Positions 6,354 to 63,962 of a DNA stretch of 64,000 bases are shown piece after piece. How positions within the stretch are numbered: the stretch's first letter is position 1; each line of letters opens with the position of its first letter. The DNA is from a virus: IMG/VR virus record IMGVR_UViG_3300032087_004567; one strand, 5' to 3'. Position numbers and translations under genes: made by a program. Under the pieces are notes generated by a model that had not been told where the DNA came from, did no database searches, and was given only the letters and a program-made list of their open reading frames with translations.

Positions 6354-6354
6354 T

Positions 6355-6849
6355 ATGAATTATTCGTATAGTATGATGGCTAGAGCAATACATGGTATTT
6401 GTAGTAATGTAGAAGCATCTAAAATAAAATTTGATTATATTGTAGGATTATCAAGAGGTGGGTTAGTACCTGCGGTAAGATTATCACATTGTTTAAATTT
6501 AGATCTTGTACCATTAAGATGGTCATTACGTGATCATAAGGCAAGAGATGTAAGAATACTTTCTAATATTCTAAGCGATCTAACTGAAGGTAAAAAAATA
6601 TTAATGGTAGATGATCTTATTGATTCAGGTGAATCAATTGATGTAATGTTACATCAGATGGCAAGAATAAGAGGTCAATTACAATTTAATTTATTTGATA
6701 AAACTTGGGAAAATAATTTAGATATTGCAGTATTATTATTTAATACTGATCAAAAGAAAGTAAGACGTCCTAGGTTTGCATATGAAAATTTTAGTAGAAA
6801 AGAACGTCCTGAATGGATTAATTTTTGGTGGGAGGCAAAAGCAGCATGA
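6355..6849 (+). CDS. type I phosphoribosyltransferase (Gpt/Hpt-like)
   Basis: VGLSRGGLVPA, PRPP-binding loop ILMVDDLIDSGES, C-terminal WINFWWE. ATG at 6355 follows the queE stop. Confidence 0.85.
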   Translation: MNYSYSMMARAIHGICSNVEASKIKFDYIVGLSRGGLVPAVRLSHCLNLDLVPLRWSLRDHKARDVRILSNILSDLTEGKKILMVDDLIDSGESIDVMLHQMARIRGQLQFNLFDKTWENNLDIAVLLFNTDQKKVRRPRFAYENFSRKERPEWINFWWEAKAA

Positions 6850-7343
6850 AATGGTATAGTACAAAAACGTATGGTAATGATCAAGGATTAAGTTGTTGTT
6901 TTAGACAATGGAAAGCTGATCATAGTCATTGTTCGTTAATACATGGTTATAGTTTAGGTTTTAAATTAGTATTTGAATGCGATAAATTAGATGCTAGAAA
7001 CTGGGTAATGGACTTTGGAGGATTAAAAGATCTTAAAGAATGGTTAAAGTATATGTTCGATCATACTTTGGTTATAGCTGAAAGTGATCCAAAGTATGAT
7101 GAGTTAGAAAGATTAGGTAAGATAGGTCTTGCTGATGTTAGAGTAGTAGATGCAGTTGGAGCTGAAAAGTTTGCAGAATTAGTCTTTCGTAAGATGACTG
7201 AAATATTAGATAAAGCAAGAGAGGATGGTAAGTTACTTAATCCTTCAGTTAAGGTGAAGAGTGTAGAATGTTTTGAGCATGGTGCTAATTCTGCAATCTT
7301 TGAAGAAGATAATGTAGAAAGTGAATTTGGGACTTTATTATGA
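6846..7343 (+). CDS. queD: 6-carboxy-5,6,7,8-tetrahydropterin synthase (QueD/PTPS family)
   Basis: SHCSLIHGY, WVMDFGGLK, FDHTL and EHGANSA motifs; ATGA overlap with the PRTase stop. Confidence 0.9.
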   Translation: MKWYSTKTYGNDQGLSCCFRQWKADHSHCSLIHGYSLGFKLVFECDKLDARNWVMDFGGLKDLKEWLKYMFDHTLVIAESDPKYDELERLGKIGLADVRVVDAVGAEKFAELVFRKMTEILDKAREDGKLLNPSVKVKSVECFEHGANSAIFEEDNVESEFGTLL

Positions 7344-8023
7344 GTTGCTGGGAAAAGATAACTGAAAAAATGATTAAAGATGGCCATAGATTCTATGCTG
7401 CCGATAATGTATCTAAGTATATTGAACCACATGAAAAAGAAATACTAATTGATGAATGTACTAGAGCGTTTGAGTTTGTTCTTGATAGTTTATTAGTAGA
7501 TAGAAAGAACGATCCTAATAGTCAAGGTACTGCAAGACGATTAGCTAAGATGTATTATAATGAAATATTTGCAGGTAGATATACTCCTACACCTAATGCT
7601 ACTGCATTTCCTAACACTGGTGATGACAAGTATGACGGTATGTTAGTGGTAAGGGCAGAGTTAAGATCTATTTGTTCGCATCATCATCAACCTGTAAAGG
7701 GTGTTGCTTATATTGCAATTATACCTAATGAAAAGTTAATTGGTTTATCTAAGTATGTTAGACTTGCACAACATCTTGCAAGACGTGGTACATTGCAAGA
7801 AGAGTTATGTAATAGAATAGTAAATAGTATTCGTGAGGCTACTGGTTCAGATGATGTAGCTGTTTATATTTCTGCAACACATGGTTGTATGGAAAATAGA
7901 GGTATTAATGCTACTTCATCTCTTACTCAAACTACTAGATTAAGCGGTCAATTCCATGATCCTGATGTTAAGAAAGAGTTCTTTGATAATATTGCACTAC
8001 AGCAATCGTATGGTGAGAAGTAG
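7340..8023 (+). CDS. folE: GTP cyclohydrolase I
   Basis: TARRLAKMY, SICSHH, IGLSK, LQEEL and HGCMENRG motifs. Confidence 0.95.
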   Translation: MSCWEKITEKMIKDGHRFYAADNVSKYIEPHEKEILIDECTRAFEFVLDSLLVDRKNDPNSQGTARRLAKMYYNEIFAGRYTPTPNATAFPNTGDDKYDGMLVVRAELRSICSHHHQPVKGVAYIAIIPNEKLIGLSKYVRLAQHLARRGTLQEELCNRIVNSIREATGSDDVAVYISATHGCMENRGINATSSLTQTTRLSGQFHDPDVKKEFFDNIALQQSYGEK

Positions 8024-8052
8024 TTGATTTAATTTAGGAAATATATTATAAT
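8024..8052 (+). promoter_or_regulatory. early sigma70-type promoter
   Basis: TTGATT-N17-TATAAT in a tagTTGATTtaattt context repeated across the window. Confidence 0.8.
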
Positions 8053-8074
8053 ATTATTTTATTATGGAGGTAAT

Positions 8075-8335
8075 ATGATTAGTCAACTAAGTTCAAAAGC
8101 TAGAGTTAAACAAGATGGCATTGGTGAAGATACAATGCATACATTATGGGATTATCATGCTAGTGCTCATACAGATGAATATAGAGTTATGTGTAAAGAT
8201 GCTATTAAGAAGTCATCTGGTAAAAATGAGACTAAATCTAACGCATGTGATGCATTAGATAAAATGACATCTAAAACTAAAATGATGCAGTTTGTAACTA
8301 ATTATTTTCTTAAAGGTGAAGGAAGAGGTGTCTAA
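8075..8335 (+). CDS. hypothetical protein
   Basis: ORF with GGAGG RBS directly after the promoter. Confidence 0.7.
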   Translation: MISQLSSKARVKQDGIGEDTMHTLWDYHASAHTDEYRVMCKDAIKKSSGKNETKSNACDALDKMTSKTKMMQFVTNYFLKGEGRGV

Positions 8336-8688
8336 TGCCTAAGATGTATTTTGCAGAGTTTACCAAAGACAATAAAGTATTTCAAAAGTTTGGTCATACA
8401 GGTCATAACGATGCAATGATAAGACTTAATAATATTACAAAAGAATATCCGCAGTTTAAGGCAAGAGTCTTAGCTGCGGCATATCATAATGATATTACAA
8501 AGTGTCAAGGGGCAGAAGAAGCTTTTAAATGTATGTACCCTAAGAATTTTTGGTTAGAAGAAAAAATATCTGGTATTACCGAATGTGTTGTATTAGATCA
8601 ATCGACTAGAAATTCTGTTATTCAAGCAGTGAGAAAATTGAATACTAAATTTAAGGAGGAGTGTTTTGGCAATCAAGATAGCGCATGA
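8335..8688 (+). CDS. hypothetical protein, possible T5orf172/GIY-YIG-like nuclease domain
   Basis: N-terminal MYFAEF...FQKFGHT...RL pattern and a late conserved E resemble GIY-YIG variants; weak. Confidence 0.4.
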   Translation: MPKMYFAEFTKDNKVFQKFGHTGHNDAMIRLNNITKEYPQFKARVLAAAYHNDITKCQGAEEAFKCMYPKNFWLEEKISGITECVVLDQSTRNSVIQAVRKLNTKFKEECFGNQDSA

Positions 8689-9508
8689 ATGTCCCTTAGG
8701 AGTTTTTTATAGAGTTCAAGAACTTACTGATTATGATTATGCATTAGTTCATTTATTTGAAGAGTCAGAAGAATACTATAATAAATTTCTTATGGCTAAA
8801 ATGGCAGGTAGAGAAATTATTTTAGATAATTCTATATTTGAATTAGGTGAGGCATTTGATGCAGAGAAGTATGCATATTGGATAGAAAAGCTTAAACCTG
8901 ATTGGTATATAGTACCTGATAGTTTAGAGAATAAAAATGAAACTATTTCTAACTATGAAAACTGGATTAAGAATTATAATGACTTACCTGGTAAAAAGAT
9001 TGGAGTTGTACAAGGTAAAAATTATGATGAGGCAGTTGATTGTTATAAATATTTTTCTGTAGCGCCATATTGTGAAAAGGTAGCAATATCATTTGACTAT
9101 TCTTTTTACGAGACTATGAATCATAACTTAGAGTTTCCAACTAAGTATCATGCATGGTGTTTAGGTAGACAAGTATTTTTAGATAGGTTAATTAGAGATG
9201 ATTGGATTAATTATAAGAGACCTCATCATTTACTTGGTTGTAGTTTACCTCAAGAGTTTTTATACTATAAAACGAACGATAAGTTTAGATTTATAGAATC
9301 TTTAGATACTTCTAATCCAGTAGTTGCAGGATTAAAGGGGATAGTTTATAATGATACTATGGGTTTAGATGATAAACCTTCAGAAAAATTATATACGATG
9401 ATTGAGAGTGATGTGAGTAAAAATACGCTCAGTCTTATTGAAAAAAATATAGATGCATTTAGGAGAATATGTAATGAACTGGGTAGCGCTTTTCAGTCAA
9501 ACGGGTAG
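8666..9508 (+). CDS. divergent TGT-fold deazaguanine transglycosylase-like protein (DpdA/DpdA3-like)
   Basis: Ordered TGT-like motifs IILDNSIFE, IVPD, IGVVQG, HHLLG, SLDTS; embedded in the que cluster; TTG start with AGGAGG RBS. Confidence 0.7.
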   Translation: MAIKIAHECPLGVFYRVQELTDYDYALVHLFEESEEYYNKFLMAKMAGREIILDNSIFELGEAFDAEKYAYWIEKLKPDWYIVPDSLENKNETISNYENWIKNYNDLPGKKIGVVQGKNYDEAVDCYKYFSVAPYCEKVAISFDYSFYETMNHNLEFPTKYHAWCLGRQVFLDRLIRDDWINYKRPHHLLGCSLPQEFLYYKTNDKFRFIESLDTSNPVVAGLKGIVYNDTMGLDDKPSEKLYTMIESDVSKNTLSLIEKNIDAFRRICNELGSAFQSNG

Positions 9509-9998
9509 TGAAATAGATACTCTAAGTAGAAATCTAAATCAAAAACCTGATCAAATACTTACTAACAATAAAGACTATGATGGACCTTTAGAAGTTACAA
9601 AAGGTACACATAAAGAATTAATGGATATGTTAGAGGAGTTAGATCCTTATACTTTAGTTACTTTACATGGTTATTTAAGAATAATACCTGAACGTATTAC
9701 CTCCCATTGTAAAAGAATGTATAACGGTCATCCTGCTCTTGCTAATGTATATCCTGAACTAAGAGGATTAGATCCACAAAAGAGAACATGGCAGAATATA
9801 GAAAGATATGCTGCGGTTGGATCTATTGTTCATCATGTAATACCCGAGGTAGATGCAGGGGACGTAGTTGCATATGAATCTATTGTAATACCACATAGTG
9901 ACTATACAGAAGAGGCGTTATATGGTGATTTAAGAACATGTTCAATAGTATCATGGAAGAAATTTTTAATGGAGTACTTTAATGAAAATCGGCATTAG
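9474..9998 (+). CDS. PurN-fold formyltransferase, candidate preQ1 N-formyltransferase (DpdN-like)
   Basis: ALFSQTGS, HGYLRII, YNGHPAL, GSIVHHV and EVDAGDV correspond to GART motifs; AGGAG RBS; lies between the DpdA-like gene and queF. Confidence 0.78.
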   Translation: MNWVALFSQTGSEIDTLSRNLNQKPDQILTNNKDYDGPLEVTKGTHKELMDMLEELDPYTLVTLHGYLRIIPERITSHCKRMYNGHPALANVYPELRGLDPQKRTWQNIERYAAVGSIVHHVIPEVDAGDVVAYESIVIPHSDYTEEALYGDLRTCSIVSWKKFLMEYFNENRH

Positions 9999-10503
9999 TG
10001 GTGTGCATGGTAGTGGTAAGACTACTTTACTTAATAATGAAATGTTTAGAAGTTGCACTAAATGCGATGAAGTAACTAGAACGGTTAAAAAAGAGTATAA
10101 CGTTGAGATAAACGAACAAGGTAATGATGTTACTCAGAAGTTAATTATGAGAGAACATATGGCAAATCTTATACTCAATAATAATATGGTAACTGATAGA
10201 ACTGTTATTGATTGTATGGCCTATACCCATTACCTTTATGATAATAAACAAGTAAGTAAAGATACGTTTAATTATATTTCTATGTGCTATAGTAAACTAG
10301 TTAAGAAATATGATCTTATATTTTATCTTGTACCAGTTGAAGATAAAATTGCCGATGATGGTGTTAGATCTACTAATGTAGAATTTAGAGATAAAATGAT
10401 AGAGTATTTTGAAAAGTATATTAATCATTTTAATGTAGTAAAGGTTAAAGGTGATTATAAAGAACGTATAAGGTTTTGTAGAGAAACTTTATGCTTATTT
10501 TAA
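9982..10503 (+). CDS. P-loop nucleotide kinase-like protein (AAA_28/NadR-type)
   Basis: GISGVHGSGKTT Walker A, DRTVID, YDLIFYL, DDGVR. Confidence 0.75.
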   Translation: MKIGISGVHGSGKTTLLNNEMFRSCTKCDEVTRTVKKEYNVEINEQGNDVTQKLIMREHMANLILNNNMVTDRTVIDCMAYTHYLYDNKQVSKDTFNYISMCYSKLVKKYDLIFYLVPVEDKIADDGVRSTNVEFRDKMIEYFEKYINHFNVVKVKGDYKERIRFCRETLCLF

Positions 10504-10512
10504 AGGAGAAGA

Positions 10513-11442
10513 ATGGATAATCAAAAGAAACTTAACGAACTAGTAAGTGTTCATTTAGGTAAAGCCGGGGATGGTTCAGTAGTTAAACCTTATGTAACCC
10601 CTGATGAAGTTGATCCTAGTTTACTTGTAGGTGTACCTAGACAATTAAATAGAACGCAATATGATTTAGATGATGGCAATCTACCTTTCGTCGGTTACGA
10701 CGTATGGAACGGCTATGAATTTTCAACTTTACTTACTAGTGGGTTTCCTGTATCGGGATGGGTTAAGTTTAGCTATAGTTCAAGTACACCTTTTATTGTA
10801 GAAAGTAAATCGGTTAAACTTTATCTTAACTCTTTTAATATGGCAAAGATAATTGAGACTGAAAAAGATATAGAAGTTATAGAGACTAAAATTAAGAATG
10901 ATATAGGTGAGGTAGTAAAAGGTGATGTTGACGTTAGAGTGTTTATTGATCCTAAGGAAACAAAAGAACCTTTTAAGAAACCTTTCTATAGTATAGAAAA
11001 ATTAGTTGATGTAGAAAATATAAAGTTTGATCGTTATAATGAATCTGAAGACATACTAAAAATCATACCCATGGGTGAATGTCCGTTGAAAGGATATTAT
11101 AGATCCTATTCGTTACGTTCTAATTGTAGGGTAACTAATCAACCTGATTGGGGTGATGTATACATTTATATCAAAGGTGCTATGACGGTAAGTTTAGAGT
11201 CATTATTACAATATATTGTTTCTATGAGAAGAGAGAATCATTTTCATGAGGAAATATGTGAATGTATCTATAAACGATTACATGATCTATTGTCACCTAT
11301 TGAGTTATTTGTTGGTTGTTTATATACTAGACGTGGTGGGATTGATATTAATCCTATTAGGGCAACATCTATGGAAACTGTTAAGGCAGTAAGTAATATT
11401 CATAATGTAAATAGACCATCAACTAAGACTGCAAGACAATGA
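10513..11442 (+). CDS. queF: NADPH-dependent 7-cyano-7-deazaguanine (preQ0) reductase, two-domain type
   Basis: QueF motif VESKSVKLYLNSF, catalytic RSNCRVTNQPDWG, FHEE, YTRRGGIDINP. Confidence 0.93.
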   Translation: MDNQKKLNELVSVHLGKAGDGSVVKPYVTPDEVDPSLLVGVPRQLNRTQYDLDDGNLPFVGYDVWNGYEFSTLLTSGFPVSGWVKFSYSSSTPFIVESKSVKLYLNSFNMAKIIETEKDIEVIETKIKNDIGEVVKGDVDVRVFIDPKETKEPFKKPFYSIEKLVDVENIKFDRYNESEDILKIIPMGECPLKGYYRSYSLRSNCRVTNQPDWGDVYIYIKGAMTVSLESLLQYIVSMRRENHFHEEICECIYKRLHDLLSPIELFVGCLYTRRGGIDINPIRATSMETVKAVSNIHNVNRPSTKTARQ

Positions 11443-11717
11443 TTGAATACAAATATAATGAACCTGAACATTTAGATAGTTTAAAGAAGTATATTGATAA
11501 TACCTATAATCAACATTATGCAAAAGGTAGTATACAGGCAACAGAATATATTATTGATTCGGGTTTAGGTAAAGGTTTTTGTATTGGGAATGTAATTAAG
11601 TATGCCTCCCGATATGGAAAGAAAGAGGGTAAGAATAAGAATGATTTATATAAAATCGTTCATTACATCATAATGGAACTAAATAGTTTAGATAAGGAAC
11701 AAAATGAATCTAAGTGA
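11439..11717 (+). CDS. DUF3310/SaV-like protein (T7 gp1.7 nucleotide-kinase-related family)
   Basis: QHY...IQATEYI...GFCIGNVIKYASRYGKKEG...DLYKIVHY. Confidence 0.8.
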   Translation: MIEYKYNEPEHLDSLKKYIDNTYNQHYAKGSIQATEYIIDSGLGKGFCIGNVIKYASRYGKKEGKNKNDLYKIVHYIIMELNSLDKEQNESK

Positions 11718-12459
11718 GGCTTTAAACGTATTACCGGACACCGATAACAAAGTTCTATCTGTACATTCCGGAGGTATGGATTCTTCTATAATGACTATGT
11801 TGTTGGTAGAAAAATATGGTAAAGACAAAGTGGAGACTGTTTCTTATCGGTACGGTCAGAAACAGGCTGAAGAACTAGTAAGAGCGCAGGAGTTCTGCAG
11901 AACGTTAGGTATCTTAAGACATGAACTAGATCTAACCATCTTAGGTTATATTGCAAGAGAAATCTCCGCTAACATTGTAGAGAGTCATATTAAGATGCCA
12001 ACCATTAAAGAGGTACTAGGAGATCCTCAGCCTAAGACCTACGTACCGTTTAGAAACTTAATTCTACTTTCTATGACTCTTGCCCAGGCCGAGGCAAGAA
12101 ACTGTAATTATATATTTACCGGATTACAAGTACATGATGAATATGGCTACTGGGATACATCACAGAAGTTTGTTGATAGTATAAATGCTGTTGCCGATCA
12201 AAATAGAACGCATAAGGTAAAAATTATTGCACCCTTTAGTCATTTATCTAAGTATGATGAAATAAAATTATGCCAGGAGATGGGTAAAGAAGAGTTATTA
12301 GAACATACTCTAACGTGTTATAATCCTGATTCAGAAGGAAGATCATGCGGTGTATGTCCTTCTTGTTCTGAACGTATTGCTAATTTTATTAAAGCAGGGG
12401 TAAGAGATCCAATAGTGTATGTAAAAGATTTGCCGTGGACACAATTATTAAATAAATAG
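11704..12459 (+). CDS. queC: 7-cyano-7-deazaguanine synthase
   Basis: SGGMDS PP-loop, YGQK, YVPFRN, TCY...CGVCPSCSER zinc site. Confidence 0.94.
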   Translation: MNLSEALNVLPDTDNKVLSVHSGGMDSSIMTMLLVEKYGKDKVETVSYRYGQKQAEELVRAQEFCRTLGILRHELDLTILGYIAREISANIVESHIKMPTIKEVLGDPQPKTYVPFRNLILLSMTLAQAEARNCNYIFTGLQVHDEYGYWDTSQKFVDSINAVADQNRTHKVKIIAPFSHLSKYDEIKLCQEMGKEELLEHTLTCYNPDSEGRSCGVCPSCSERIANFIKAGVRDPIVYVKDLPWTQLLNK

Positions 12460-12463
12460 TTAT

Positions 12464-12997
12464 ATGGCAAAATATAATCATAGAACTATACATACAGTAT
12501 ATCTTGATATGGATGGGGTTCTATGTGATTTCGATTCATATTACAGATCAATATACGGGGTAAATTGCAGAGATGACGATAATGAAGATAATTGGTACGA
12601 GTTTGTCAATAATCAAGGATTTCAAGAGCTCGATAGAATGCCAGGTTACGATGATCTGTTTTCAATGCTCAACGAGCTGTATGTGGATATCGAGATTCTT
12701 TCCTGTATTACTAGTAGGAAGAATAATAAAGAGGTTGCAAAACAAAAAGTAGAATGGTTATTTAGAAATAGTTTAGAAAATAATGTAATTAACTTTACTA
12801 TAACAAAACAAGGTAAAGGTAATTATGCTAATCCAAATGTATTGCTGATTGATGATTCTGATGAATGTATTTCAGCATTTAAACAAAGTGGGGGGTATGC
12901 TTTAAAGTATACCGGTATTGATAAGCTAAAATTTGAGATTGAATATTTATTAAGTGAAGATATATTATGTGTGCGATCGTTGGGTCATTTCAGTTAG
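12464..12997 (+). CDS. HAD-family 5'(3')-deoxyribonucleotidase
   Basis: YLDMDGVLCDF, KVEWL and LLIDD motifs. Confidence 0.8.
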   Translation: MAKYNHRTIHTVYLDMDGVLCDFDSYYRSIYGVNCRDDDNEDNWYEFVNNQGFQELDRMPGYDDLFSMLNELYVDIEILSCITSRKNNKEVAKQKVEWLFRNSLENNVINFTITKQGKGNYANPNVLLIDDSDECISAFKQSGGYALKYTGIDKLKFEIEYLLSEDILCVRSLGHFS

Positions 12998-13590
12998 ATA
13001 AACTTAAAGAACTAATCAAGTTAAATTCCTATAGAGGTTCTCATTCATACTCTATATCGTTTTATGATATAGAAAATGGTACGTTGAATAATGTTATAAA
13101 AGACTTTGGTGAATTAGATGTTGATACTATAAGAATACCTTATGGTGATTATTGTATAGCACATATACAAGCGCCTACAACAACTAAAAAAGATAAAGAT
13201 TCAATTCATCCGGCAACTGTCGATGATTGTTATCTATGGCATAATGGTATAATAAAAGAAATGACAATTGAGAAGTTTAGTAAAGAGTATAATACTAAAT
13301 GGGATACTAAGTTACTACTTGAAGGAATTAAAAAAGTAGGTTATAATATACTCAATGAAATGGATGGTACGTTTAGTTGTTTAATGTATAAAGATAAGAA
13401 TTTATTATTATTTCGTAATGAAATATCTCCGATGTTTATAGATGATGATTTTAATATTTCATCAACGAAGTTTGATAATAGTAGAGAAACAGATCCTAAT
13501 AAAGTTATACAAATGGATCTAAAGAATAAAAGTCTACAAACAGTAGATAGATTTAAAACGTATTTTAACCCTTATTACTTTGGAGATTAA
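12967..13590 (+). CDS. class II (Ntn) glutamine amidotransferase-like protein
   Basis: N-terminal MCAIVG nucleophile, RG, IHP, LWHNGII, WDT. Confidence 0.8.
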   Translation: MCAIVGSFQLDKLKELIKLNSYRGSHSYSISFYDIENGTLNNVIKDFGELDVDTIRIPYGDYCIAHIQAPTTTKKDKDSIHPATVDDCYLWHNGIIKEMTIEKFSKEYNTKWDTKLLLEGIKKVGYNILNEMDGTFSCLMYKDKNLLLFRNEISPMFIDDDFNISSTKFDNSRETDPNKVIQMDLKNKSLQTVDRFKTYFNPYYFGD

Positions 13591-34770: not shown

Positions 34771-34997
34771 ACTTTATTGTAAGATATAAAAGAATTTATT
34801 TTAAGGACAACAGAGTAGAACATATCGAACAAACCCACTATGCCCACCATCCGGCCGATATATTCATGTCTATGGACACTGAATTTAGAAGAAAAGACTA
34901 TGTGGTAGAAAAAGTAGAGGTCATCAATGTCGATAGAGAATCATTTGGTAACCTTGAGAAACTAAAACAAATTGATATACCCAGAAGAGGACACTAA
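34767..34997 (+). CDS. hypothetical protein
   Basis: Coupled ORF. Confidence 0.55.
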   Translation: MNFIVRYKRIYFKDNRVEHIEQTHYAHHPADIFMSMDTEFRRKDYVVEKVEVINVDRESFGNLEKLKQIDIPRRGH

Positions 34998-35758
34998 TGC
35001 ATACCTATTATTATGAACCAATTTATAGGGGGAAGGTGCGTGATGTATATTCACTTACCAACAACTATCTTCTTATTGATACTACCGATAGAATATCAGT
35101 CTTCGATAAAGTATTAGATCTACCTTGTAATGGAAGAGGTAAGGTGTTAAATGATATAACAGCCTTTTGGTCTAAATATCTTTATGACATTATTCCTAAT
35201 CATTATGTGCGTCATACTGATAATCAAATGGTTGTTAGACGTACCACCCCCATAAAGATAGAATTTGTGGTACGTAAATGTATCTTTGGTTCTTTTTATG
35301 AACAGCATAAGGATAAGTTCTTTGAAGGTGAAATGTTAAAAAATCCTATACTTACACCTACATCTAAATCAGACGTAAAAGACGTTCCATTAACAGAAGA
35401 ACAATGCCGTTCTATATCGCGGCATTATGATTATTGTAAAGATATATCCATTAAGTTATTCAATAAAGCCTATGATTATCTATTTGATAGAGGCATGATA
35501 TTATGTGATACCAAGTTTGAATTTGGATTACAACGCAATGAAGTCCTCCTAATTGATGAATATTTGACACCAGATAGTTCCAGGTTAATCAAAAAATCAC
35601 AATATGAAAAAGGAAGATTTGTATTCAAGGATAAACAAATATTAAGAGATATAGTAAAGAATAAAGAACCATTAAATAAAGAAATAATGGATTATTTATT
35701 CTATATTTACGATAATACAAAGAATATTATTATTAATGGTAAAGTTAAAAAACTATGA
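34997..35758 (+). CDS. purC: SAICAR synthetase
   Basis: RGKVRDVY, TDRISVFD, IEFVVR, TPTSK, LCDTKFEFG, LIDEYLTPDSSR, DKQ. Confidence 0.92.
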   Translation: MHTYYYEPIYRGKVRDVYSLTNNYLLIDTTDRISVFDKVLDLPCNGRGKVLNDITAFWSKYLYDIIPNHYVRHTDNQMVVRRTTPIKIEFVVRKCIFGSFYEQHKDKFFEGEMLKNPILTPTSKSDVKDVPLTEEQCRSISRHYDYCKDISIKLFNKAYDYLFDRGMILCDTKFEFGLQRNEVLLIDEYLTPDSSRLIKKSQYEKGRFVFKDKQILRDIVKNKEPLNKEIMDYLFYIYDNTKNIIINGKVKKL

Positions 35759-36369
35759 AACAAATAATCGATTGTTATTCAATACCTATTCTAAAATTAA
35801 CACTCCCGGAAGATCTATTTAAACAGACATTAGAACGTGCCGAAATTTACATACGACACAACGATTGGTTCACCAAAGAACATTATGGTTGTTCAATCAA
35901 TTCATTCTATGATGATGGAAGACATTGTTATTGTGAGGAAAATGATAAGGAACTATTAGACTTTATTGATGAAAATATGTCCTCGTTTGTTGAAATAACC
36001 AATCATTCACTCAAAGGAACCAAACGAATATACAACAGTTGGTTAAATCTTAACATGCCAAACACCCAACACCCATTACATCAACACTTTAATTCATTTG
36101 TTTCCGGGGTAATTTGGTTACGTACACCGCCTAATTCTGGTGACTTTTCATTTCAAGATCCCATACCCGAACGTAGAATGAACCATGACAAGTATAGATG
36201 GGCCGTTAATGAACCCAATCATTATAATTCCGAAATGTATCGATGGAAGGTTAATGCCGGCAATATGATCTATTACCCCTCCTGGGTGCCCCATTGTGTG
36301 TATTCAAATGAAACTGAGGATGACTATAGACTATCCATTGCCTTTAATATGGAGATGGGAAAGGAATGA
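35755..36369 (+). CDS. 2OG-Fe(II) oxygenase (TIGR02466-like)
   Basis: SWLN, HPLHQH, SGVIWL, FQDP, YPSWVPHCV, RLSIAFN. Confidence 0.8.
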   Translation: MKQIIDCYSIPILKLTLPEDLFKQTLERAEIYIRHNDWFTKEHYGCSINSFYDDGRHCYCEENDKELLDFIDENMSSFVEITNHSLKGTKRIYNSWLNLNMPNTQHPLHQHFNSFVSGVIWLRTPPNSGDFSFQDPIPERRMNHDKYRWAVNEPNHYNSEMYRWKVNAGNMIYYPSWVPHCVYSNETEDDYRLSIAFNMEMGKE

Positions 36370-56107: not shown

Positions 56108-56571
56108 ACGAAAGTGTAGTAGATTTATTTCTAGTATATCAGTTTATAAAAAGACTAGTACTACCATTTAAAGAATGGCAAGCATATAAACTTGGTATCA
56201 TAGATGATAAAGGTAAAGTACTTAAAAAAAGAAGTACTCTTAAAACCTCACAAGAAAAAAATGCATGGGGTTATTTTGATATCCTTGCAACTAATCTAAA
56301 AAAATTATTAGCTAAAATTCCAGGTGGTGATACAAGACTGGCCTCTTATGCAGCCGCTGGTTTATTACTTCGTGAGGCTAAAGAACTTAGCGAAATGTCT
56401 GAAGAAGAAATAGAAGAAAAGGTAAAAGAATTACTTAAAGATTTAATTAAGGAAGATCCTGCAAATGTAGCAGGTGGTGGTCATGTTGCTGGTTTAGGAG
56501 TTGGACCTCAAGGTGAACCAGGTATTAAAAAATCATTATTATTGAGAAGAAAAAAACCAAAATATGTTTAG
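56095..56571 (+). CDS. conserved T4-like hypothetical protein
   Basis: YQFIKRLVLPF..W.AYKLGIIDDKG, NLKKLL, SYAAA. Confidence 0.72.
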   Translation: MAKLNESVVDLFLVYQFIKRLVLPFKEWQAYKLGIIDDKGKVLKKRSTLKTSQEKNAWGYFDILATNLKKLLAKIPGGDTRLASYAAAGLLLREAKELSEMSEEEIEEKVKELLKDLIKEDPANVAGGGHVAGLGVGPQGEPGIKKSLLLRRKKPKYV

Positions 56572-57055
56572 TGGATTATATTTGAAATTAGCACTTGCAG
56601 GTGTTCTAGCTGCTAGTGTGCTAGGAGTTTATGCATATGTAAATGGACTAAAAGCTGATCTAGCAACTAGTGAAGCTAATAATGTTAAACTAGAACAATC
56701 AATAGAACAACAACAGGAAGTAATTAAACAATTTCAAGCTGATATGAAGGCAAAAGAAATTGTTAATTCACAATTACGTAATAAAATTAAACAACAAGAG
56801 AAACAAAAAGATAACTTAGTTAAAAAGTTTGAAAAGACTAAGAAAGATGGCACTAAGAGAGATATAGGTAAGTCTAGTGTAAAGAAACCTGAAAGAGTTA
56901 AAAAGATAATAAATAAAGGTACACGAGATGCCTATCGTTGTATTGCTATTGCATCTGGTGCACCATTAACTGAAAGTGAGATAAATGCTACTAAGAAATC
57001 TGAAACAAACTCGCAATGTTCTGATATTGCTAATCCTAACTACGTTCCTAAGTAG
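56564..57055 (+). CDS. inner-membrane spanin (Rz-like)
   Basis: N-terminal TM helix, long coiled coil, C-terminal Cys; overlaps a lipoprotein gene. Confidence 0.7.
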   Translation: MFSGLYLKLALAGVLAASVLGVYAYVNGLKADLATSEANNVKLEQSIEQQQEVIKQFQADMKAKEIVNSQLRNKIKQQEKQKDNLVKKFEKTKKDGTKRDIGKSSVKKPERVKKIINKGTRDAYRCIAIASGAPLTESEINATKKSETNSQCSDIANPNYVPK

Positions 57056-57389
57056 TTGCGCTTTATTTAGAGATCCTGTAAAAGAAATAGAAGTCGTAAC
57101 TAAAACAATAGAACGTGTTCCGCTAAATATTCCAGATCAAGATCCTCTTTATCTTGTACCACCTGAGTGGTTTGTTGTAACTCCTAATAACATCGATGAA
57201 GTATGGAGACAATTAGAGGAAGATGGTTTTGATGTAGTATTATTTGCTGTTACTGATGAAGGCTATAAACAAATATCTTATGACTTTCTAAAGATAAGAC
57301 AGCATATAAATTATAATAAATTTATTATTAGAAAATATAAAGAATATTACGAACCTAAGAAAGATAAAGATGATAATGGAAAAGACTGA
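56985..57389 (+). CDS. outer-membrane spanin lipoprotein (Rz1-like)
   Basis: Lipobox FLSSC after a hydrophobic stretch; Pro-rich linker; overlaps the i-spanin. Confidence 0.7.
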   Translation: MLLRNLKQTRNVLILLILTTFLSSCALFRDPVKEIEVVTKTIERVPLNIPDQDPLYLVPPEWFVVTPNNIDEVWRQLEEDGFDVVLFAVTDEGYKQISYDFLKIRQHINYNKFIIRKYKEYYEPKKDKDDNGKD

Positions 57390-58122
57390 AGTACAAAATC
57401 TAGTTAGAATGTCAATGGTTGCATCAATAACATATCTTGATGGTAAACCAGCTAAACCTAAGTTTAAAGAACTAGGGTATAAGGTTGTTAACTTTTATGA
57501 TATAGATGGTGCGCAAGGCTACCTCTTAAAGAATGATAATCATGTTTGTTTTTCATTTAGAGGAACAGAACCAAGAGAGTTAAGTGATATTAAAGCAGAC
57601 ATATATGCAGCTAGAGATGAAAATTTACCATATACACCTGGTAAAGTACATAGAGGATTTAAACAAGAGTTAGATAAACTATGGCCTTTTTTAGTAAAGT
57701 ATTTAAAAGAAGAAAATCCGCAAAATGTAATTGTAACTGGTCATTCACTTGGTGCAGCAATAGCAACTTTATTTTGTTCTAGAATCTTAGAGTTTAATCC
57801 TGTACTATACACTTTTGGATCACCGAGAGTTGGTAATATGGTATTTACTAATTTTCTATTTAATAATAATTTAACACATTATAGAGTACAAAATAATAAT
57901 GATTTAGTTTGTACAGTACCACCAAAGTGGTTGCTATATAAACATCATGGTCAGAATGTTTATATGAACACCTGGGGTCATATTAGAAATCTTAACCCAT
58001 GGCAAAAATTTAAAGATAAGATAAGAGGTAGAATAGCTGCTTTAAAGAAAGGTCAGATATTTGATGGTTTAAGAGATCATAGTATGGTTAAATATGTTAA
58101 ATATCTTACACAGAATAGCTAA
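57370..58122 (+). CDS. class 3 lipase (alpha/beta hydrolase)
   Basis: FRGTE, VHRGF, TGHSLGAA, YTFGSPRVG, NNDLV..VP, DHSM. Confidence 0.9.
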   Translation: MIMEKTEVQNLVRMSMVASITYLDGKPAKPKFKELGYKVVNFYDIDGAQGYLLKNDNHVCFSFRGTEPRELSDIKADIYAARDENLPYTPGKVHRGFKQELDKLWPFLVKYLKEENPQNVIVTGHSLGAAIATLFCSRILEFNPVLYTFGSPRVGNMVFTNFLFNNNLTHYRVQNNNDLVCTVPPKWLLYKHHGQNVYMNTWGHIRNLNPWQKFKDKIRGRIAALKKGQIFDGLRDHSMVKYVKYLTQNS

Positions 58123-58451
58123 TGTACTTTTGGATACTTAAATCTATTGCGGGAGGACTTTTAGGTTCTGCATCATCTAAATGGTTTGGTAAAACTAGAT
58201 TAGGACAATGGTGCTTTTTAAAATTTGAAGCATTAATGGATTGGGCAAAAGATAGATATGGTATTAATCTTCTTGATAAAGAAGATATTGAATGGAAAAC
58301 TAAATTTCCTAGCGTAGCTGCATCATTCGATAAGCTACAAAAAAGAGTAAGAAGATTAGAAAAAAATAGTCACCCGGCTAGAGAGATAACAGAGTTTGAT
58401 AGCTGGAAAGAAATAGACGAAAGAATAAAAAAACTGGAGAATAGAAAATGA
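58122..58451 (+). CDS. hypothetical membrane-associated protein
   Basis: Amphipathic N-terminus, within the lysis region. Confidence 0.55.
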   Translation: MYFWILKSIAGGLLGSASSKWFGKTRLGQWCFLKFEALMDWAKDRYGINLLDKEDIEWKTKFPSVAASFDKLQKRVRRLEKNSHPAREITEFDSWKEIDERIKKLENRK

Positions 58452-59644
58452 AAATATTATGTATATTATACGACGACCCTAAAAATGGAATGCCTAAAAG
58501 TTATCCGCTTTCAGATATTCCAAAGTTAGAAAAATATCCTGATGGCATGGATCTTCCAACACCTAAAGGTAGAGATTTTAAGCCAGGTGAATTGTTAGGT
58601 TGTGTATCAGGTGAACTAGGATTAAGAAAGTTTTTAGAATCAGAAGGCCATGAACTTGTAGTAACTTCAAGTAAAGATGGTGAAGGATGTGAAGCAGATA
58701 AACATATCGTTGATGCTGATGTAGTAATTTCACAACCTTTCTTTCCTTATTATCTTACAAGACAAAAAATTGAAAAAGCAAAAAATCTTAAAATGGCTAT
58801 AACAGCAGGTATAGGTTCAGACCATGTAGACTTACAAGCTGCTTTAGACCATAAGATAGATGTTGTAGAAGTAACTTATTGTAATTCGAGATCAGTTGCA
58901 GAACATATTGTTATGATGATTATTTCTATGGTTAGAGATTATCATAACCAACATAAAATTGTTAATGAAGGTGGTTGGAATATTGCTGATGCAGTACAAA
59001 GAAGTTATGATGTAGAAGGTATGCATATTGGTACAGTAGCAGCAGGTAGAATTGGACTTGATGCTTTAAGAAAAATGAAACCATTTGATGTACATCTACA
59101 CTATTTTGATAGACATAGATTACCTGAATCTGTTGAGAAGGAATTAAATCTTACTTTCCATGAGTCAGTTGAATCAATGGTTAAAGTATGTGATGTTGTA
59201 ACAATCAATTGTCCATTACATCCAGAGACAGAAAATTTATTTGATGCAGAGATGGTAAGTAAAATGAAAAAAGGTGCTTACATTGTTAACACTGCAAGAG
59301 GTAAAATTTGTGATAAACAAGCCATAGCTGATGCATTAGAAAGTGGACAGTTATCTGGTTATGCAGGAGATGTTTGGTTTCCACAACCGGCACCAAATGA
59401 TCATGTATGGAGATCTATGCCAAATCATGGTATGACACCGCACACTTCAGGAACATCTTTATCAGCACAAACAAGATATGCTGATGGTGTAAGAGAAATA
59501 CTAGAATGTTTCTTTGATGGAAGACCAATTAGAGATCAGTACTTAATTGTTAAAAATGGTGAACTTGCAGGTATGGGTGCTCATAGTTATAGTAAAGGTA
59601 CTGCAACAGGTGGATCAGAAGAAGCAGAAAAATATAAAAAATAA
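58448..59644 (+). CDS. fdh: NAD-dependent formate dehydrogenase (metal-independent, D-2-hydroxyacid dehydrogenase family)
   Basis: ILCILYDDP, ELLGCVSGELGLRKFLE, AGIGSDHVDL, AAGRIG, YFDRHRL, NTARG, GDVWFPQPAP, MTPHTSG. Confidence 0.95.
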   Translation: MKILCILYDDPKNGMPKSYPLSDIPKLEKYPDGMDLPTPKGRDFKPGELLGCVSGELGLRKFLESEGHELVVTSSKDGEGCEADKHIVDADVVISQPFFPYYLTRQKIEKAKNLKMAITAGIGSDHVDLQAALDHKIDVVEVTYCNSRSVAEHIVMMIISMVRDYHNQHKIVNEGGWNIADAVQRSYDVEGMHIGTVAAGRIGLDALRKMKPFDVHLHYFDRHRLPESVEKELNLTFHESVESMVKVCDVVTINCPLHPETENLFDAEMVSKMKKGAYIVNTARGKICDKQAIADALESGQLSGYAGDVWFPQPAPNDHVWRSMPNHGMTPHTSGTSLSAQTRYADGVREILECFFDGRPIRDQYLIVKNGELAGMGAHSYSKGTATGGSEEAEKYKK

Positions 59645-59661
59645 TGAAGGAAAAATAGAAA

Positions 59662-60123
59662 ATGAATTTATCAAAAAATTTTACATTGCATGAGATGATT
59701 AAATCTGATACTGCATTAAGAAGAGGGTTAGACAATGACCCTGATGAACAACAAATTTCTAACCTTACTAGACTGTGCGAAGAAATTTTACAACCAGTCA
59801 GAGAAAAGTTTGGGCCTACTAAAATTAATTCAGGATTTAGACACCCTGACGTTAACTCAGCTGTTGGAGGATCCAAAACATCTGATCATTGTAAAGGAAT
59901 GGCAGCTGATATTGAGGTGCCAGGAGTTGCTAATGCTGATCTTGCCCAATGGATTGTAGATAATTGTGAGTTTCGTCAAGTTATATTAGAATTTTATACA
60001 CCAGGTATTCCTGATAGTGGTTGGGTGCATGTGTCATTTAATCCAGACGATAATAAGAAGCAAGTTTTAACTGCTATGAAAGAAAATGGTAGAACAGTGT
60101 ATAAGGTTGGACTTATAGCTTAG
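59662..60123 (+). CDS. peptidase M15A endolysin
   Basis: LSKNFTLHEM, INSGFR, SDHCKGMAADI, WVHVS. Confidence 0.88.
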   Translation: MNLSKNFTLHEMIKSDTALRRGLDNDPDEQQISNLTRLCEEILQPVREKFGPTKINSGFRHPDVNSAVGGSKTSDHCKGMAADIEVPGVANADLAQWIVDNCEFRQVILEFYTPGIPDSGWVHVSFNPDDNKKQVLTAMKENGRTVYKVGLIA

Positions 60124-60131
60124 TATAAATA
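60124..60131 (+). promoter_or_regulatory. gp55-type late promoter
   Basis: TATAAATA. Confidence 0.65.
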
Positions 60132-60165: not shown

Positions 60166-60435
60166 ATGGTTGGTCATTCATATAAGATGGAGCTTGAGCA
60201 GTCACTTGATGTTAAGATAGCAGTAATGGAAAGCAAGTTAGAAGAAATCACCAAAGATATTAAAGAAATGCGTGACGAAAGCAAAGAACAGCATGAAGCT
60301 TTATTTGCACGTATCGATAGACTCGATAAAAGAATTAATTTAATAGAAAGATGGAGATGGATGCTTATTGGTGCTGCTGTGGTTATTGGTTATTTCTTAG
60401 CTGACTCGACTCTATTAAAATTATTCACAGGTTGA
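60166..60435 (+). CDS. coiled-coil protein with C-terminal TM helix (holin/hemolysin-like candidate)
   Basis: RINLIERWRWMLIGAAVVIG, adjacent to the endolysin. Confidence 0.55.
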   Translation: MVGHSYKMELEQSLDVKIAVMESKLEEITKDIKEMRDESKEQHEALFARIDRLDKRINLIERWRWMLIGAAVVIGYFLADSTLLKLFTG

Positions 60436-60488: not shown

Positions 60489-61493
60489 ATGTTATACATT
60501 GACCATAAGTACGTAAATTTATTATCTAATAGATTACCTAGATTTAAAAAACTAAACGATAAAACTTATACGTTTAGATGTCCTATCTGTGGTGATTCAA
60601 AAAGAAATACCTATAAGACAAGAGGATATATCTTTAGTAAGAAAGATACTATGTTATACTTTTGTCATAACTGTGGTGCTTCTATGCAGTTTCGTACATT
60701 TCTTAAACAACAAGACGTTCAACTATATGATGAATATGTTAGAGAGAAATATACCGAGAGCAACAACTCTCACCAGGCTAACACAGTAGATATAACCAAG
60801 GTGGTGTGGCCTAAGTATCGCATTGATTCTCCATTAAAAACACTTAAAAAAATAAGCCAACTCAGTCATGAGCATCCGGCTAAAAACTATGTCATTAATA
60901 GAAAAATTCCTAATAATTATCATCATAAACTATTCTATGCTCCTAAATTTAAAAAATGGATAAATTCATATATACCCGGCAAGCTGAATATTGAAACCGG
61001 TGATGAACCAAGACTTATAATTCCTTTTATCGATAAGAAAGGTCAATGCTTTGGTGTTCAGGGTAGATCTTTTTTTAAGAAAGGAATACGATATGTTACT
61101 ATCATGTTTGAAGAAGATTATCCAAAAATCTTTGGATTGGATGAAGTTATATGTGATGAGACCTGCTATATTACTGAGGGACCTATTGACAGCATGTTTA
61201 TTGATAACAGCATTGCTATGGCTGGATCTGATCTAACGTTAAGTAAGTTAGATATAGAGTTAAAAGATGTATGTTATATTTTTGACAACGAACCACGTAA
61301 TAGTCAAATAATAAAACGTATGGATAAAGTTATTAAAAGAGATTATAATATTGTTATATGGCCAGAATCATTAAAATTTAAAGATATAAATGATATGATA
61401 CTGGGTGGTATTGATCCTATGAAGATTATCAAGGACAATACCTTTAAAGGATTAGAGGCATCGATGAAATTAGTACAATGGAGTAAAGCATGA
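60489..61493 (+). CDS. gp61: DNA primase gp61
   Basis: FRCPICGDS...CHNC zinc finger, QGR, TEGPIDSMF, FDNEPR, KDINDM. Confidence 0.96.
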   Translation: MLYIDHKYVNLLSNRLPRFKKLNDKTYTFRCPICGDSKRNTYKTRGYIFSKKDTMLYFCHNCGASMQFRTFLKQQDVQLYDEYVREKYTESNNSHQANTVDITKVVWPKYRIDSPLKTLKKISQLSHEHPAKNYVINRKIPNNYHHKLFYAPKFKKWINSYIPGKLNIETGDEPRLIIPFIDKKGQCFGVQGRSFFKKGIRYVTIMFEEDYPKIFGLDEVICDETCYITEGPIDSMFIDNSIAMAGSDLTLSKLDIELKDVCYIFDNEPRNSQIIKRMDKVIKRDYNIVIWPESLKFKDINDMILGGIDPMKIIKDNTFKGLEASMKLVQWSKA

Positions 61494-62155
61494 AAGTTAG
61501 AATGATTAGTTATTCTAAACCTTCTGATGATCTGTATGACGAAGGATTGCAATCTGAATCTGATTTGATTGCCTTTTGTGCAAGAGTATCTAATCCATCT
61601 AATCAAATGAATACTGAAACATCTGATAAATTGTTAAAGTATCTTGTAAAGAATAATCATTGGAGTCCATTTGAAATGGTAAGTGTATGTTTAGAAATAG
61701 AAACTACACGTGATATTGCAAGACAAATACTTAGACATAGATCGTTTTCATTTCAAGAGTTTTCACAGCGTTATGCTAACCCAGTTGAAGATCTACAATT
61801 TGAATCTAGAGAGGCAAGAATTCAAGATCCAAAGAATAGACAAAATTCACATAAAACAGAGAATTTTGCAACTAAACAACTATGGGATTTTGCAGTAGAT
61901 AAATTAACTAAACATGCAAAAGAACAGTATAATAAAGCAATAAAAGCAGGAATTGCTAAAGAACAGGCACGTGCATTATTACCAGAAGGATTGATTCAAT
62001 CGCGATTATATATGAATGGGACCTTGCGGTCTTGGATTCACTATATAAATCTACGATCAGCTAATGGTACGCAGTTGGAGCACATGGAAATAGCGCAGGA
62101 ATGTGGTCGTATCATTGCCAAAGTCTTTCCTTTCATTAGTAATCTTCTAGAATAA
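61490..62155 (+). CDS. thyX: flavin-dependent thymidylate synthase
   Basis: HWSPFE, RQILRHRSFSFQEFSQRY, ARALLP, TQLEH. Confidence 0.96.
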   Translation: MKVRMISYSKPSDDLYDEGLQSESDLIAFCARVSNPSNQMNTETSDKLLKYLVKNNHWSPFEMVSVCLEIETTRDIARQILRHRSFSFQEFSQRYANPVEDLQFESREARIQDPKNRQNSHKTENFATKQLWDFAVDKLTKHAKEQYNKAIKAGIAKEQARALLPEGLIQSRLYMNGTLRSWIHYINLRSANGTQLEHMEIAQECGRIIAKVFPFISNLLE

Positions 62156-62168
62156 AAATTATAATAGG

Positions 62169-63962
62169 ATGTATATGTCTAATATTAATATTGATTTAAC
62201 AAGGGATTCGTTATTTGACGAATTAGGTAAGAAACGTTTAAAAGAAAGTTACATGAGAGATGATGAAGAATCACCACAAGAACGACTTGCATTTGTATCT
62301 GAAGCATTTGGAACCAATCCAGCGCATGCACAGAGACTTTATGATTATTCTTCAAAGCATTGGCTTAGTTATAGTACTCCAATCCTGTCTTATGGGAGAA
62401 GTAGTAGAGGCTTGCCTATCAGTTGTTTTCTTCCTTACTTGGATGATTCGGCTGAAGGATTGGTGGATACCTTAAGTGAGGTAAACTGGCTATCAATGCT
62501 AGGTGGAGGAGTAGGTATTGGTGTTGGTATAAGATCGGCAGACGAAAAGTCTGTTGGTGTTATGCCGCATTTAAGAATATATGATGCAAGTTCACTTGCC
62601 TATAGACAAGGTAAGACTAGAAGAGGTAGTTATGCTGCATACTTAGATATATCACATCCAGATATTATTCAATTTTTAGAGTTAAGAAAACCAACCGGTG
62701 ATCAGAATATGAGATGTTTAAATTTACATCATGGTATTAATGTCACCGATGACTTTATGAAGATTATAGAAGAGTGTATGGTCAATCCTAAGTTTGATGA
62801 TTCCTGGCATTTACGTGATCCACATAATCCAGAGATAATTAAAGATACTATATCTGCAAGAGAGTTGTGGCAAAGAATATTAGAAATGAGAATGCATACA
62901 GGTGAACCTTATATACATTTTATTGATACAAGTAATAAGAAAATGCCTCAATGGCAAAAAGATAAACACCTTAAAATAAGACAATCGAATTTATGTTCTG
63001 AAATTATTCTACCAACTGATAAAGAGAGAACAGCAGTATGTTGTTTATCATCAGTTAATTTAGAATATTTTGATGAATGGAAAAATGATGAAATGTTCTT
63101 GAAAGATGTAGCAGAAATGTTAGATAACGTCTTACAACATTTTATTGATAATGCACCATCAGAGGTAAGTAGAGCAGTTTATTCTGCAAAGAACGAAAGG
63201 TCTATTGGAATAGGTGCATTAGGCTTTCATGCATATTTACAGAACAAACATCTGCCATGGGATTCAGCTATGGCAAAAGCTTTCAATAATAGTATGTTTA
63301 AACATATTAGAGAAAAGCTTAATACAGCAAATAGAGAACTTGGTAAAGAAAGAGGTGAGGCTCCAGATGCAAAAGGGACAGGTTTACGTTTCTCACATTT
63401 AATGGCTGTTGCACCTAATGCTAGTTCTTCTATTATAATGGGCAATACATCACCGTCAGTAGAACCATATAGAGCTAATGCCTATAGACAAGATACCTTA
63501 AGTGGTGCATTTTTAAATAAAAATAAATTTTTAGATAAGCTAATAAAGGAAAAATGTAATGAGGATAAATCGATTGACTACGACGAGGTGTGGTCAAGTA
63601 TTATTGCTAACGACGGAAGCGCCCAACACCTGGAGTGCCTCTCAAGCGGGGATAAAGATGTCTTTAAAACTGCAATGGAGATTGACCAGCGATGGGTGGT
63701 GGCGCACGCAGCTGACAGACAAAATTTCATTGACCAGGCGCAGTCCATCAATCTCTTCTTTAGGCCCGATTGTGACGTAAAGTATTTACATGCAGTACAT
63801 TTTCAGGCATGGAAGCAAGGATTAAAAACTCTATACTATTGTAGATCTGAAAAGATTGGAAAAGCAGATAGAGTTGCAAAGAAAATAGAAAGAAAAGTTA
63901 TTGAGGAGATTGATCTTCAACAGCTTGCAACTGAGGATGTATGTTTAGCCTGTGAGGGATAG
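62169..63962 (+). CDS. nrdA: class I ribonucleotide reductase alpha subunit (short, no ATP cone)
   Basis: PISCF, QSNLCSEI, VCCLSS, APNASSS, KTLYY, C-terminal CLACEG. Confidence 0.95.
   Translation: MYMSNINIDLTRDSLFDELGKKRLKESYMRDDEESPQERLAFVSEAFGTNPAHAQRLYDYSSKHWLSYSTPILSYGRSSRGLPISCFLPYLDDSAEGLVDTLSEVNWLSMLGGGVGIGVGIRSADEKSVGVMPHLRIYDASSLAYRQGKTRRGSYAAYLDISHPDIIQFLELRKPTGDQNMRCLNLHHGINVTDDFMKIIEECMVNPKFDDSWHLRDPHNPEIIKDTISARELWQRILEMRMHTGEPYIHFIDTSNKKMPQWQKDKHLKIRQSNLCSEIILPTDKERTAVCCLSSVNLEYFDEWKNDEMFLKDVAEMLDNVLQHFIDNAPSEVSRAVYSAKNERSIGIGALGFHAYLQNKHLPWDSAMAKAFNNSMFKHIREKLNTANRELGKERGEAPDAKGTGLRFSHLMAVAPNASSSIIMGNTSPSVEPYRANAYRQDTLSGAFLNKNKFLDKLIKEKCNEDKSIDYDEVWSSIIANDGSAQHLECLSSGDKDVFKTAMEIDQRWVVAHAADRQNFIDQAQSINLFFRPDCDVKYLHAVHFQAWKQGLKTLYYCRSEKIGKADRVAKKIERKVIEEIDLQQLATEDVCLACEG

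Follow-up and report, generated by a model that had tools for sequence, protein, structure and literature searches.

What does a gene for formate oxidation do beside an endolysin gene in a viral genome, and does it belong to the virus at all? The question is raised by a 64,000-nucleotide (nt) stretch of the virus record IMGVR_UViG_3300032087_004567 (hereafter the window), in which an open reading frame (ORF) at 58448-59644 on the plus strand encodes a 398-aa protein (P0001) recognized as a metal-free NAD-dependent formate dehydrogenase (FDH) by NF005750, its Pfam domains, its alignment to PDB structures and its catalytic residues. An earlier note, made from the letters of the window, had proposed a phage-encoded enzyme within a lysis cassette that boosts NADH during late infection of a C1-oxidising aquatic host. 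On the evidence below, we estimate a probability of about 0.78 that the gene is a functional auxiliary metabolic gene (AMG), namely a SAR11-type NAD+-FDH in a T4-like myophage most likely infecting SAR11; we infer its catalytic activity, its expression and timing and its physiological benefit.

The window gene encodes a canonical formate dehydrogenase

The ORF is uninterrupted over its 398 codons, and its product scored 666.3 bits against NCBIfam NF005750, the equivalog profile for NAD-dependent FDH (EC 1.17.1.9; curated cutoff 329 bits), matching profile positions 3-385 of 386. Both PF00389 (2-Hacid_dh) and PF02826 (2-Hacid_dh_C) were detected above cutoff, which is the two-domain architecture of D-2-hydroxyacid dehydrogenases. 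Residues 2-398 aligned with the FDHs of Moraxella C-1 (PDB 2gsd) and Pseudomonas sp. 101 (PDB 2nac) at E values of about 1e-199, and residue numbers in the window FDH are those of the Pseudomonas enzyme (PseFDH). Neither Pfam nor the PDB alignment revealed an extra domain, and the protein is an unmodified cytoplasmic dehydrogenase.

The motifs that the earlier note had read in a full-length protein were all found, namely NTARG at residues 281-285 (with R284), PQP at 312-314 (Q313), TPH at 330-332 (H332) and, around the aspartate of YFDRHR, HYFDRHR at 218-224 (D221). Across 62 viral and 129 host FDHs, P97, F98, I122, N146, D221, R284, D308, Q313, H332 and S334 are invariant, and the Rossmann fingerprint A198-x-G200-x-x-G203, together with D221, is likewise invariant. 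We take P97, F98, I122, N146, R284, Q313 and H332 to be the formate-binding and catalytic residues, following PseFDH. FDHs of this class oxidize formate to CO2 with reduction of NAD+ and do so without a metal or prosthetic group, and Asp221 selects NAD+ and disfavours NADP+. These data confirm the predicted product as a canonical metal-free NAD-dependent FDH with an intact active site. The enzyme itself is ordinary.

The gene is carried by a T4-like phage

In a public assembly collection, 50 indexed blocks contain the exact window FDH protein, and eight independent assemblies from different samples (ENA, JGI and Logan) have the same gene order at 99.4-99.9% nt identity to the window. In seven of these eight, a single unbroken alignment passes through both FDH junctions; the eighth (L225) aligns as two overlapping pieces, owing to an endolysin insertion of ~60 bp. 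This insertion or duplication lies near the 3' end of the endolysin gene (L225 5215-5736, against window 59662-60123) and gives a product of 173 instead of 153 aa, the sequences being otherwise 99.9% identical. The IMG/VR locus L001, a more distant relative, is collinear with the window and keeps its gene order. Since the eight assemblies and L001 retain both junctions, the chimeric assembly that the earlier note had named as a way for its claim to fail is excluded.

The rest of the window is that of a phage. A T4-like replication and recombination core on the plus strand (1652-26435; gp47/gp46, sliding clamp, clamp loader, gp43 polymerase, UvsX and gp41 helicase, from PHROG and Pfam matches) is collinear with 79-104 kb of phage HTVC008M (NC_020484), and 28 of the 106 window ORFs have HTVC008M homologues in the same order at 79-121 kb. 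The backbone, the assemblies and L001 together bear out the claim that FDH is phage-borne and not host contamination. The codon argument that had been offered for this claim stood only in part: the AT-rich codons are real but do not speak against a host origin, as SAR11 FDH is equally AT-rich. The GC content at third codon positions is 0.136 in the window FDH and 0.15-0.26 in the SAR11 host copies, and because both are AT-rich, base composition cannot tell phage from host.

FDH genes occur on many viral contigs in several gene contexts

A search of viral databases for other phage FDHs, as the earlier note had suggested, was productive: a scan of IMG/VR returned 76 FDH-bearing viral contigs, on which FDH lies in at least five gene contexts. 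In context A (the window and L001) the order is lipase, a hypothetical 109-aa gene (hyp109), FDH and endolysin. Context B (L002 group) consists of UvdE, FDH and a clamp-loader-like AAA+ gene followed by endolysin and spanin, and context C (L016 group) of spanin and FDH followed by CHASE2-cyclase, CsgG and curlin, an accessory block of HTVC008M type. FDH is placed between a lipase, itself preceded by the large subunit of ribonucleotide reductase (RNR), and the RNR small subunit in context D (L057 group), and after the gp41 helicase in context E (L055 group). In L012 an IMPDH/GMP-reductase gene is found directly 3' of FDH.

These contigs come from phages of different sizes. The genome size implied by CheckV completeness is about 145 kb for L016 and L062 and about 360-400 kb for L002, L005, L014, L020, L027, L046 and L066. 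The family-B polymerase encoded on L002, L005, L014 and L046 is only about 30% identical to that of the window, and the ~360-400 kb FDH-bearing contigs possibly represent jumbo phages of SAR11. Among the cultured and deposited phages of INPHARED, there was neither a true FDH nor a near DNA match to the window. The only INPHARED matches of at least 46% identity were unannotated 'Staphylococcus phage' contigs (OR845000.1 and OR849882.1, with an FDH 46% identical to that of the window), which were not taken as phage evidence; sibling records of these deposits reach 209 kb and may be host-contaminated assemblies.

Viral FDHs were exchanged with SAR11 more than once

The best 80 matches to the window FDH among species-representative genomes all came from single-amplified and metagenome-assembled genomes of Pelagibacteraceae/Pelagibacterales, at 89-91% aa identity. 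FDH was present in 169 of 301 sampled Pelagibacterales genomes; among 150 further genomes of the class that were sampled, just 3 had it, in copies 67-70% identical to the window FDH. The host neighbourhood reads NifU-like, HPP, FDH, MsrA and ADH in the closest clade, and FGGY kinase, class II aldolase, FDH and fatty-acid hydroxylase in more distant ones. At host loci L188 and L189, which belong to one SAR11 clade, FDH is convergent with the gene for formate-tetrahydrofolate ligase (fhs), 1 nt apart; this adjacency in some SAR11 genomes ties the metal-free enzyme to the tetrahydrofolate (THF)-linked C1 pathway. Host flank probes, at least three of which matched at every host locus tested, detected host flanks at none of the 76 IMG/VR FDH loci, and window phage genes occurred at no host FDH locus.

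A maximum-likelihood tree was built from 39 viral, 30 host and 3 outgroup rows, with non-SAR11 alphaproteobacterial FDHs as the outgroup and the viral group set by data source before the tree was seen. The most divergent Pelagibacterales matches were rejected as an outgroup, being truncated or pseudogenised. Some host genomes have copies with frameshifts or many stops. Of the pseudogenes at G269:C2:43527-44729 and G168:C6:69773-70967, one contains seven stops and the other is split, which indicates that the host gene is dispensable in some Pelagibacterales lineages.

The tree divides the viral FDHs among three clades, and the SAR11 host clade that is sister to each differs from one to the next. 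The sister group of V1, to which the window, L001 and the L002 group belong, consists of 17 host rows (support 98/99); V2 comprises 29 rows (support 100/99) and lies beside 7 host rows; V3 (L056 and L057) lies beside hosts L202 and L203. The viral rows were united as a single clade in 0 of 200 bootstrap trees, and the approximately unbiased (AU) test rejected such a clade (delta lnL 87, p = 0.0004). With the root placed on the non-SAR11 FDHs, V1 falls within a set of host lineages, and this favours a host-to-phage transfer; parsimony is the basis for the direction in V2 and V3. The search for the nearest cellular donor that the earlier note had proposed thus leads to Pelagibacteraceae, at 89-91% aa identity and with V1 sister to a SAR11 host clade. 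What can safely be stated from this tree is a minimum of three exchanges between host and phage. These may have been separate captures, or the gene may have been captured once, long ago, with its phage allele later replaced by host alleles via homologous recombination; the data do not distinguish the two. Moreover, V1 and V2 each hold a T4-like subclade (the window type in V1, the ~145 kb HTVC008M-like type in V2) as well as a subclade of ~360-400 kb phages, which implies that FDH also passed from one phage lineage to another or that similar hosts gave rise to parallel captures.

Viral clades share substitutions at FDH alignment positions 99, 167, 222, 234, 237, 382 and 395 that are rare or absent in the 129 host copies, for example F237Y in V2a, V2b and V3, and R222K in V2b and V3. 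Residue 222, which is next to Asp221, is R in the window FDH and K in 38 viral copies. Convergence, host donors outside the sample or a mosaic V3 could account for these shared changes.

Phage FDH is under purifying selection and recombines

The ratio of nonsynonymous to synonymous substitution rates (dN/dS, omega), calculated pairwise by the Nei-Gojobori method, came to approximately 0.03-0.11 for pairs inside the viral clades and to 0.02-0.05 for host pairs. For the unsaturated pair of window and L001, dS was 0.089 and omega 0.036. FDH is under long-term purifying selection in phages. The closest host copy has only 82% nt identity to the window FDH, which indicates that the capture is old and that the gene has been kept since.

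The comparison with L001 further points to movement of the gene between phages. In 150-nt windows along FDH, the two sequences are 96-100% identical (98% nt overall), and identity drops to 71-86% (about 80%) in the lipase, hyp109 and endolysin genes on either side, with the switch falling at the FDH gene boundaries. This pattern indicates a recent, gene-sized FDH exchange between related phages. Taken more widely, metal-free NAD-FDH may be a widespread and repeatedly exchanged SAR11-phage AMG of psbA-like status, with at least three exchanges, spread across unrelated phage lineages and recent gene-level recombination; we hold this tentatively, at a little short of even odds.

A proposed role in C1 oxidation of the host

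The host of the window phage is very likely SAR11, as suggested by the FDH donor, the 32% GC of the window and the endolysin, for which Pelagibacter podophages (52-56% identity) are prominent among the top cultured-phage matches. This fits the C1-oxidising aquatic host proposed earlier, as SAR11, the donor and likely host, is a known C1 oxidiser. Sun et al. 2011 (PMC3160333) showed that methyl-group oxidation in SAR11 is THF-linked, has the conversion of formate to CO2 as its last step and provides reduced nucleotides as well as ATP; that paper treats only the molybdenum FdhF/FdsB enzyme, a multi-subunit Mo-FDH of cultured SAR11. In an infected cell, the phage FDH would convert formate and NAD+ to CO2 and NADH and would maintain the terminal step of THF-linked C1 oxidation as host gene expression declines. 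NADH and, via respiration, ATP would be kept flowing, and removal of formate would pull the reaction of formyl-THF to formate, ATP and THF. As a single-gene and cofactor-free enzyme, it could be used by the phage without maturation genes.

Several observations weigh against this reading. Upstream of FDH, neither a T4-type late promoter motif nor another clear promoter was found, and none of the 20 neighbouring proteins scanned in the other phage contexts is another C1 gene product (fhs, folD). Most pairs other than window and L001 have dS above 1 and are saturated, which makes their omega approximate. The window polymerase is 52% identical to that of Synechococcus phage S-T4 versus 45% to that of HTVC008M, and the helicase is 64% identical to those of cyanomyophages versus 59% to that of HTVC008M; with core replication proteins slightly closer to cyanomyophages, the window phage is no close relative of HTVC008M. 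As for timing, the T4 late promoter TATAAATA occurs 8 times in the window versus about 20 expected by chance, with the nearest copy at 60124, after the endolysin, and is uninformative on when FDH is expressed. The earlier placing of FDH in late infection found no support, as no T4-type late promoter motif precedes the gene.

The alternative that survives best is that FDH chiefly scavenges formate released by phage-driven reactions and does not serve the host C1 energy pathway; the enzyme would then clear this formate, regain NADH and make THF available to ThyX and to the synthesis of purines. Formate arises from GTP cyclohydrolase I, which sets free one molecule for each GTP, and from the deformylation of peptides when protein is made in bulk. 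Encoded in the window are FolE (7340-8023), a PTPS/QueD-like protein (6825-7343), a QueE-like radical SAM protein (5505-6353) and QueC (11704-12459), in addition to a formyltransferase-like protein (9453-9998), purC (34997-35758) and ThyX, and HTVC008M lacks both FDH and homologues of these genes. FolE was also present on 2 of 5 large FDH-carrying contigs, but this co-occurrence is weak, as all five are fragments and HTVC008M is the one FDH-free control genome. Scavenging is compatible with the proposed role in C1 oxidation, and as the chief function we consider it unlikely.

The genes at 5505-13590 form a set of the 7-deazaguanine/queuosine-precursor type (QueE-like, PRTase, PTPS/QueD-like, FolE, formyltransferase-like, AAA_28, phrog_5949, which is a second GTP cyclohydrolase-type gene, QueC and GATase). 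Homologues of FolE, QueC and the QueE-like protein were absent from HTVC008M. The content of this set suggests that the phage DNA is modified. Further AMGs of nucleotide metabolism lie at 34997-36369, where purC (SAICAR synthetase) is followed by a 2-oxoglutarate (2OG)-Fe(II) oxygenase gene.

Far less probable, and largely refuted, is that FDH is a passenger, either a recently captured host gene without a selected function in the phage or an artefact of assembly or binning. The window protein is 91% identical to host proteins and the composition of its gene is indistinguishable from that of the host, which speaks for this reading. However, both junctions recur in the eight independent assemblies, and a common mis-join is implausible in assemblies (ENA, JGI and Logan) made from different samples. 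A recent capture disagrees with the 82% nt identity of the closest host copy and with saturated dS against hosts (1.3-1.7), which point to an old one. A lack of function disagrees with dN/dS of 0.03-0.11 and with the retention of all active-site residues in the 62 viral copies, some host copies being pseudogenised.

FDH lies in an inserted block that adjoins lysis genes

In HTVC008M, the homologues of two window genes on either side of FDH adjoin each other. The left one is a small conserved gene (56985-57389, plus strand; HTVC008M 117543-117761) and the right one a DUF7201 gene (60166-60435, plus strand; PF23831; HTVC008M 117988-118182, inside gp147). The block of lipase, hyp109, FDH and M15 endolysin between them (57370-60123) is therefore an insertion of ~2.75 kb. 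All of its genes are on the plus strand. The first encodes a class 3 lipase/esterase (57370-58122; PF01764, E 7e-20; phrog_21992), and a 43% identical homologue lies directly 5' of the clade V3 FDH in L056-L059 and L073. The lipase is thus found next to lysis genes in the window and directly before FDH in the unrelated V3 context, although the FDH alleles are of separate origin. This recurrence could mark an insertion hot spot or a lipase-FDH module in which the FDH allele was replaced.

The second gene, hyp109 (58122-58451), matched neither Pfam nor PHROG and has homologues on phage contigs (86% in L001; 38-42% in L015 and L024). As the earlier note had observed, FDH overlaps this upstream phage gene: its start codon lies on the hyp109 stop codon in a 4-nt overlap (ATGA). 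A Shine-Dalgarno-like GGAG motif, read directly from the sequence, is located at 58436-58439 on the plus strand, 9 nt 5' of the FDH start, and translation of FDH is possibly coupled to that of hyp109. The endolysin gene, which closes the block, was rightly placed immediately downstream: it starts 17 nt after the FDH stop (59662-60123) and encodes a 153-aa M15 peptidase (Peptidase_M15_3, PF08291, E 1e-18; phrog_894, E 8e-44). Beyond the DUF7201 gene, a replication and nucleotide module with primase, ThyX and RNR large subunit genes occupies 60489-63962 on the plus strand (phrog_47, PF02511 and PF02867).

The term lysis cassette, as used in the earlier note, fits these genes only loosely. The endolysin is clear. 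A candidate Rz-like spanin gene 1.4 kb upstream of FDH (56564-57055, plus strand; HTVC008M homologue 117243-117479) has a weak match to phrog_739 (E 1e-9), the lipase and hyp109 genes are interposed between it and FDH, no holin was identified, and the block is inserted relative to HTVC008M. A role of FDH in lysis itself or in its timing is the least probable explanation and is disfavoured: FDH does adjoin the M15 endolysin, the class 3 lipase and the spanin candidate, and endolysin or spanin genes are near it in contexts B and C too, but elsewhere its neighbour is a clamp-loader-like AAA+ gene, RNR small subunit, GMP reductase, UvdE or gp41 helicase, the enzyme is a plain cytoplasmic dehydrogenase with no added domain, and the inserted state of the block as compared with HTVC008M suggests an accessory-gene hot spot. 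FDH is most probably no part of the lysis function; the inserted block adjoins lysis genes.

Significance and comparison with known systems

No marine heterotroph is more abundant than SAR11, in which C1 oxidation converts methylated compounds to CO2 and adds no biomass. If many SAR11 phages carry and use FDH, infection would sustain or raise the flux from formate to CO2 and the supply of NADH in a large share of ocean bacteria, and FDH would be an energy-type AMG for a heterotroph, in parallel to the photosynthesis genes of cyanophages. If FDH is indeed as widespread an AMG as we tentatively suggest, formate and C1 oxidation would be a principal energy lever of viral infection in SAR11. The choice of enzyme would be sensible, since it takes one gene and requires neither a metal nor a molybdopterin cofactor, in contrast to the multi-subunit Mo-FDH of cultured SAR11 (PMC3160333).

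The earlier note did not recognise FDH as a commonly reported phage AMG, and this needs one amendment. A 'formate dehydrogenase' was listed among the unique genes of PMP-MAVG-4, a deep-ecotype pelagimyophage, together with GMP reductase and heme genes (Zaragoza-Solas et al. 2020, PMC7029224); that paper gives FDH one sentence, suggests generation of a proton gradient as its role and cites the structure of the molybdenum FDH-H. Full-text literature searches returned no description of a marine phage NAD-FDH beyond PMP-MAVG-4. PMP-MAVG-4 is an uncultured SAR11 myophage with FDH, as the window phage very likely is. The pair of FDH and IMPDH/GMP-reductase genes in L012 matches its gene list, from which L012 would appear to be PMP-MAVG-4. 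The window FDH differs from this one in belonging to clade V1 and not V2, and in its gene context. How widely phage FDH is distributed, its multiple origins, its passage from one phage lineage to another and its strong conservation appear undescribed, and phage FDH is probably a real and under-described metabolic helper gene.

Among characterized enzymes, the FDHs of Pseudomonas sp. 101 and Moraxella sp. C-1 (2nac/2nad and 2gsd; EC 1.17.1.9) share the numbering, the catalytic and NAD-selecting residues and the two-domain architecture of the window FDH. In contrast to them, the window copy is encoded by a phage and is about 91% identical to SAR11 proteins, versus 67-70% to the non-SAR11 alphaproteobacterial outgroup FDHs. 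The chromosomal NAD-FDH of Pelagibacteraceae is far closer, with 89-91% aa identity and the same active-site residues; host copies are mostly 399 aa long and the window protein 398 aa, the host chromosomal neighbours are absent from the phages, and nt identity is about 82%. Among phages, HTVC008M has the order of 28 homologous ORFs in common with the window phage but lacks FDH and, at the corresponding site, the whole lipase-hyp109-FDH-M15 block, and its core proteins are only 40-60% identical.

The closest parallel in kind is psbA of T4-like cyanomyophages, a host energy-metabolism gene that is under purifying selection and has been exchanged repeatedly between hosts and phages. The window FDH would serve C1 oxidation and NADH supply instead of photosynthesis and in another host. 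Like psbA and other cyanomyophage AMGs, it is a host energy gene in T4-like marine myophages that is kept by purifying selection and has apparently been exchanged repeatedly.

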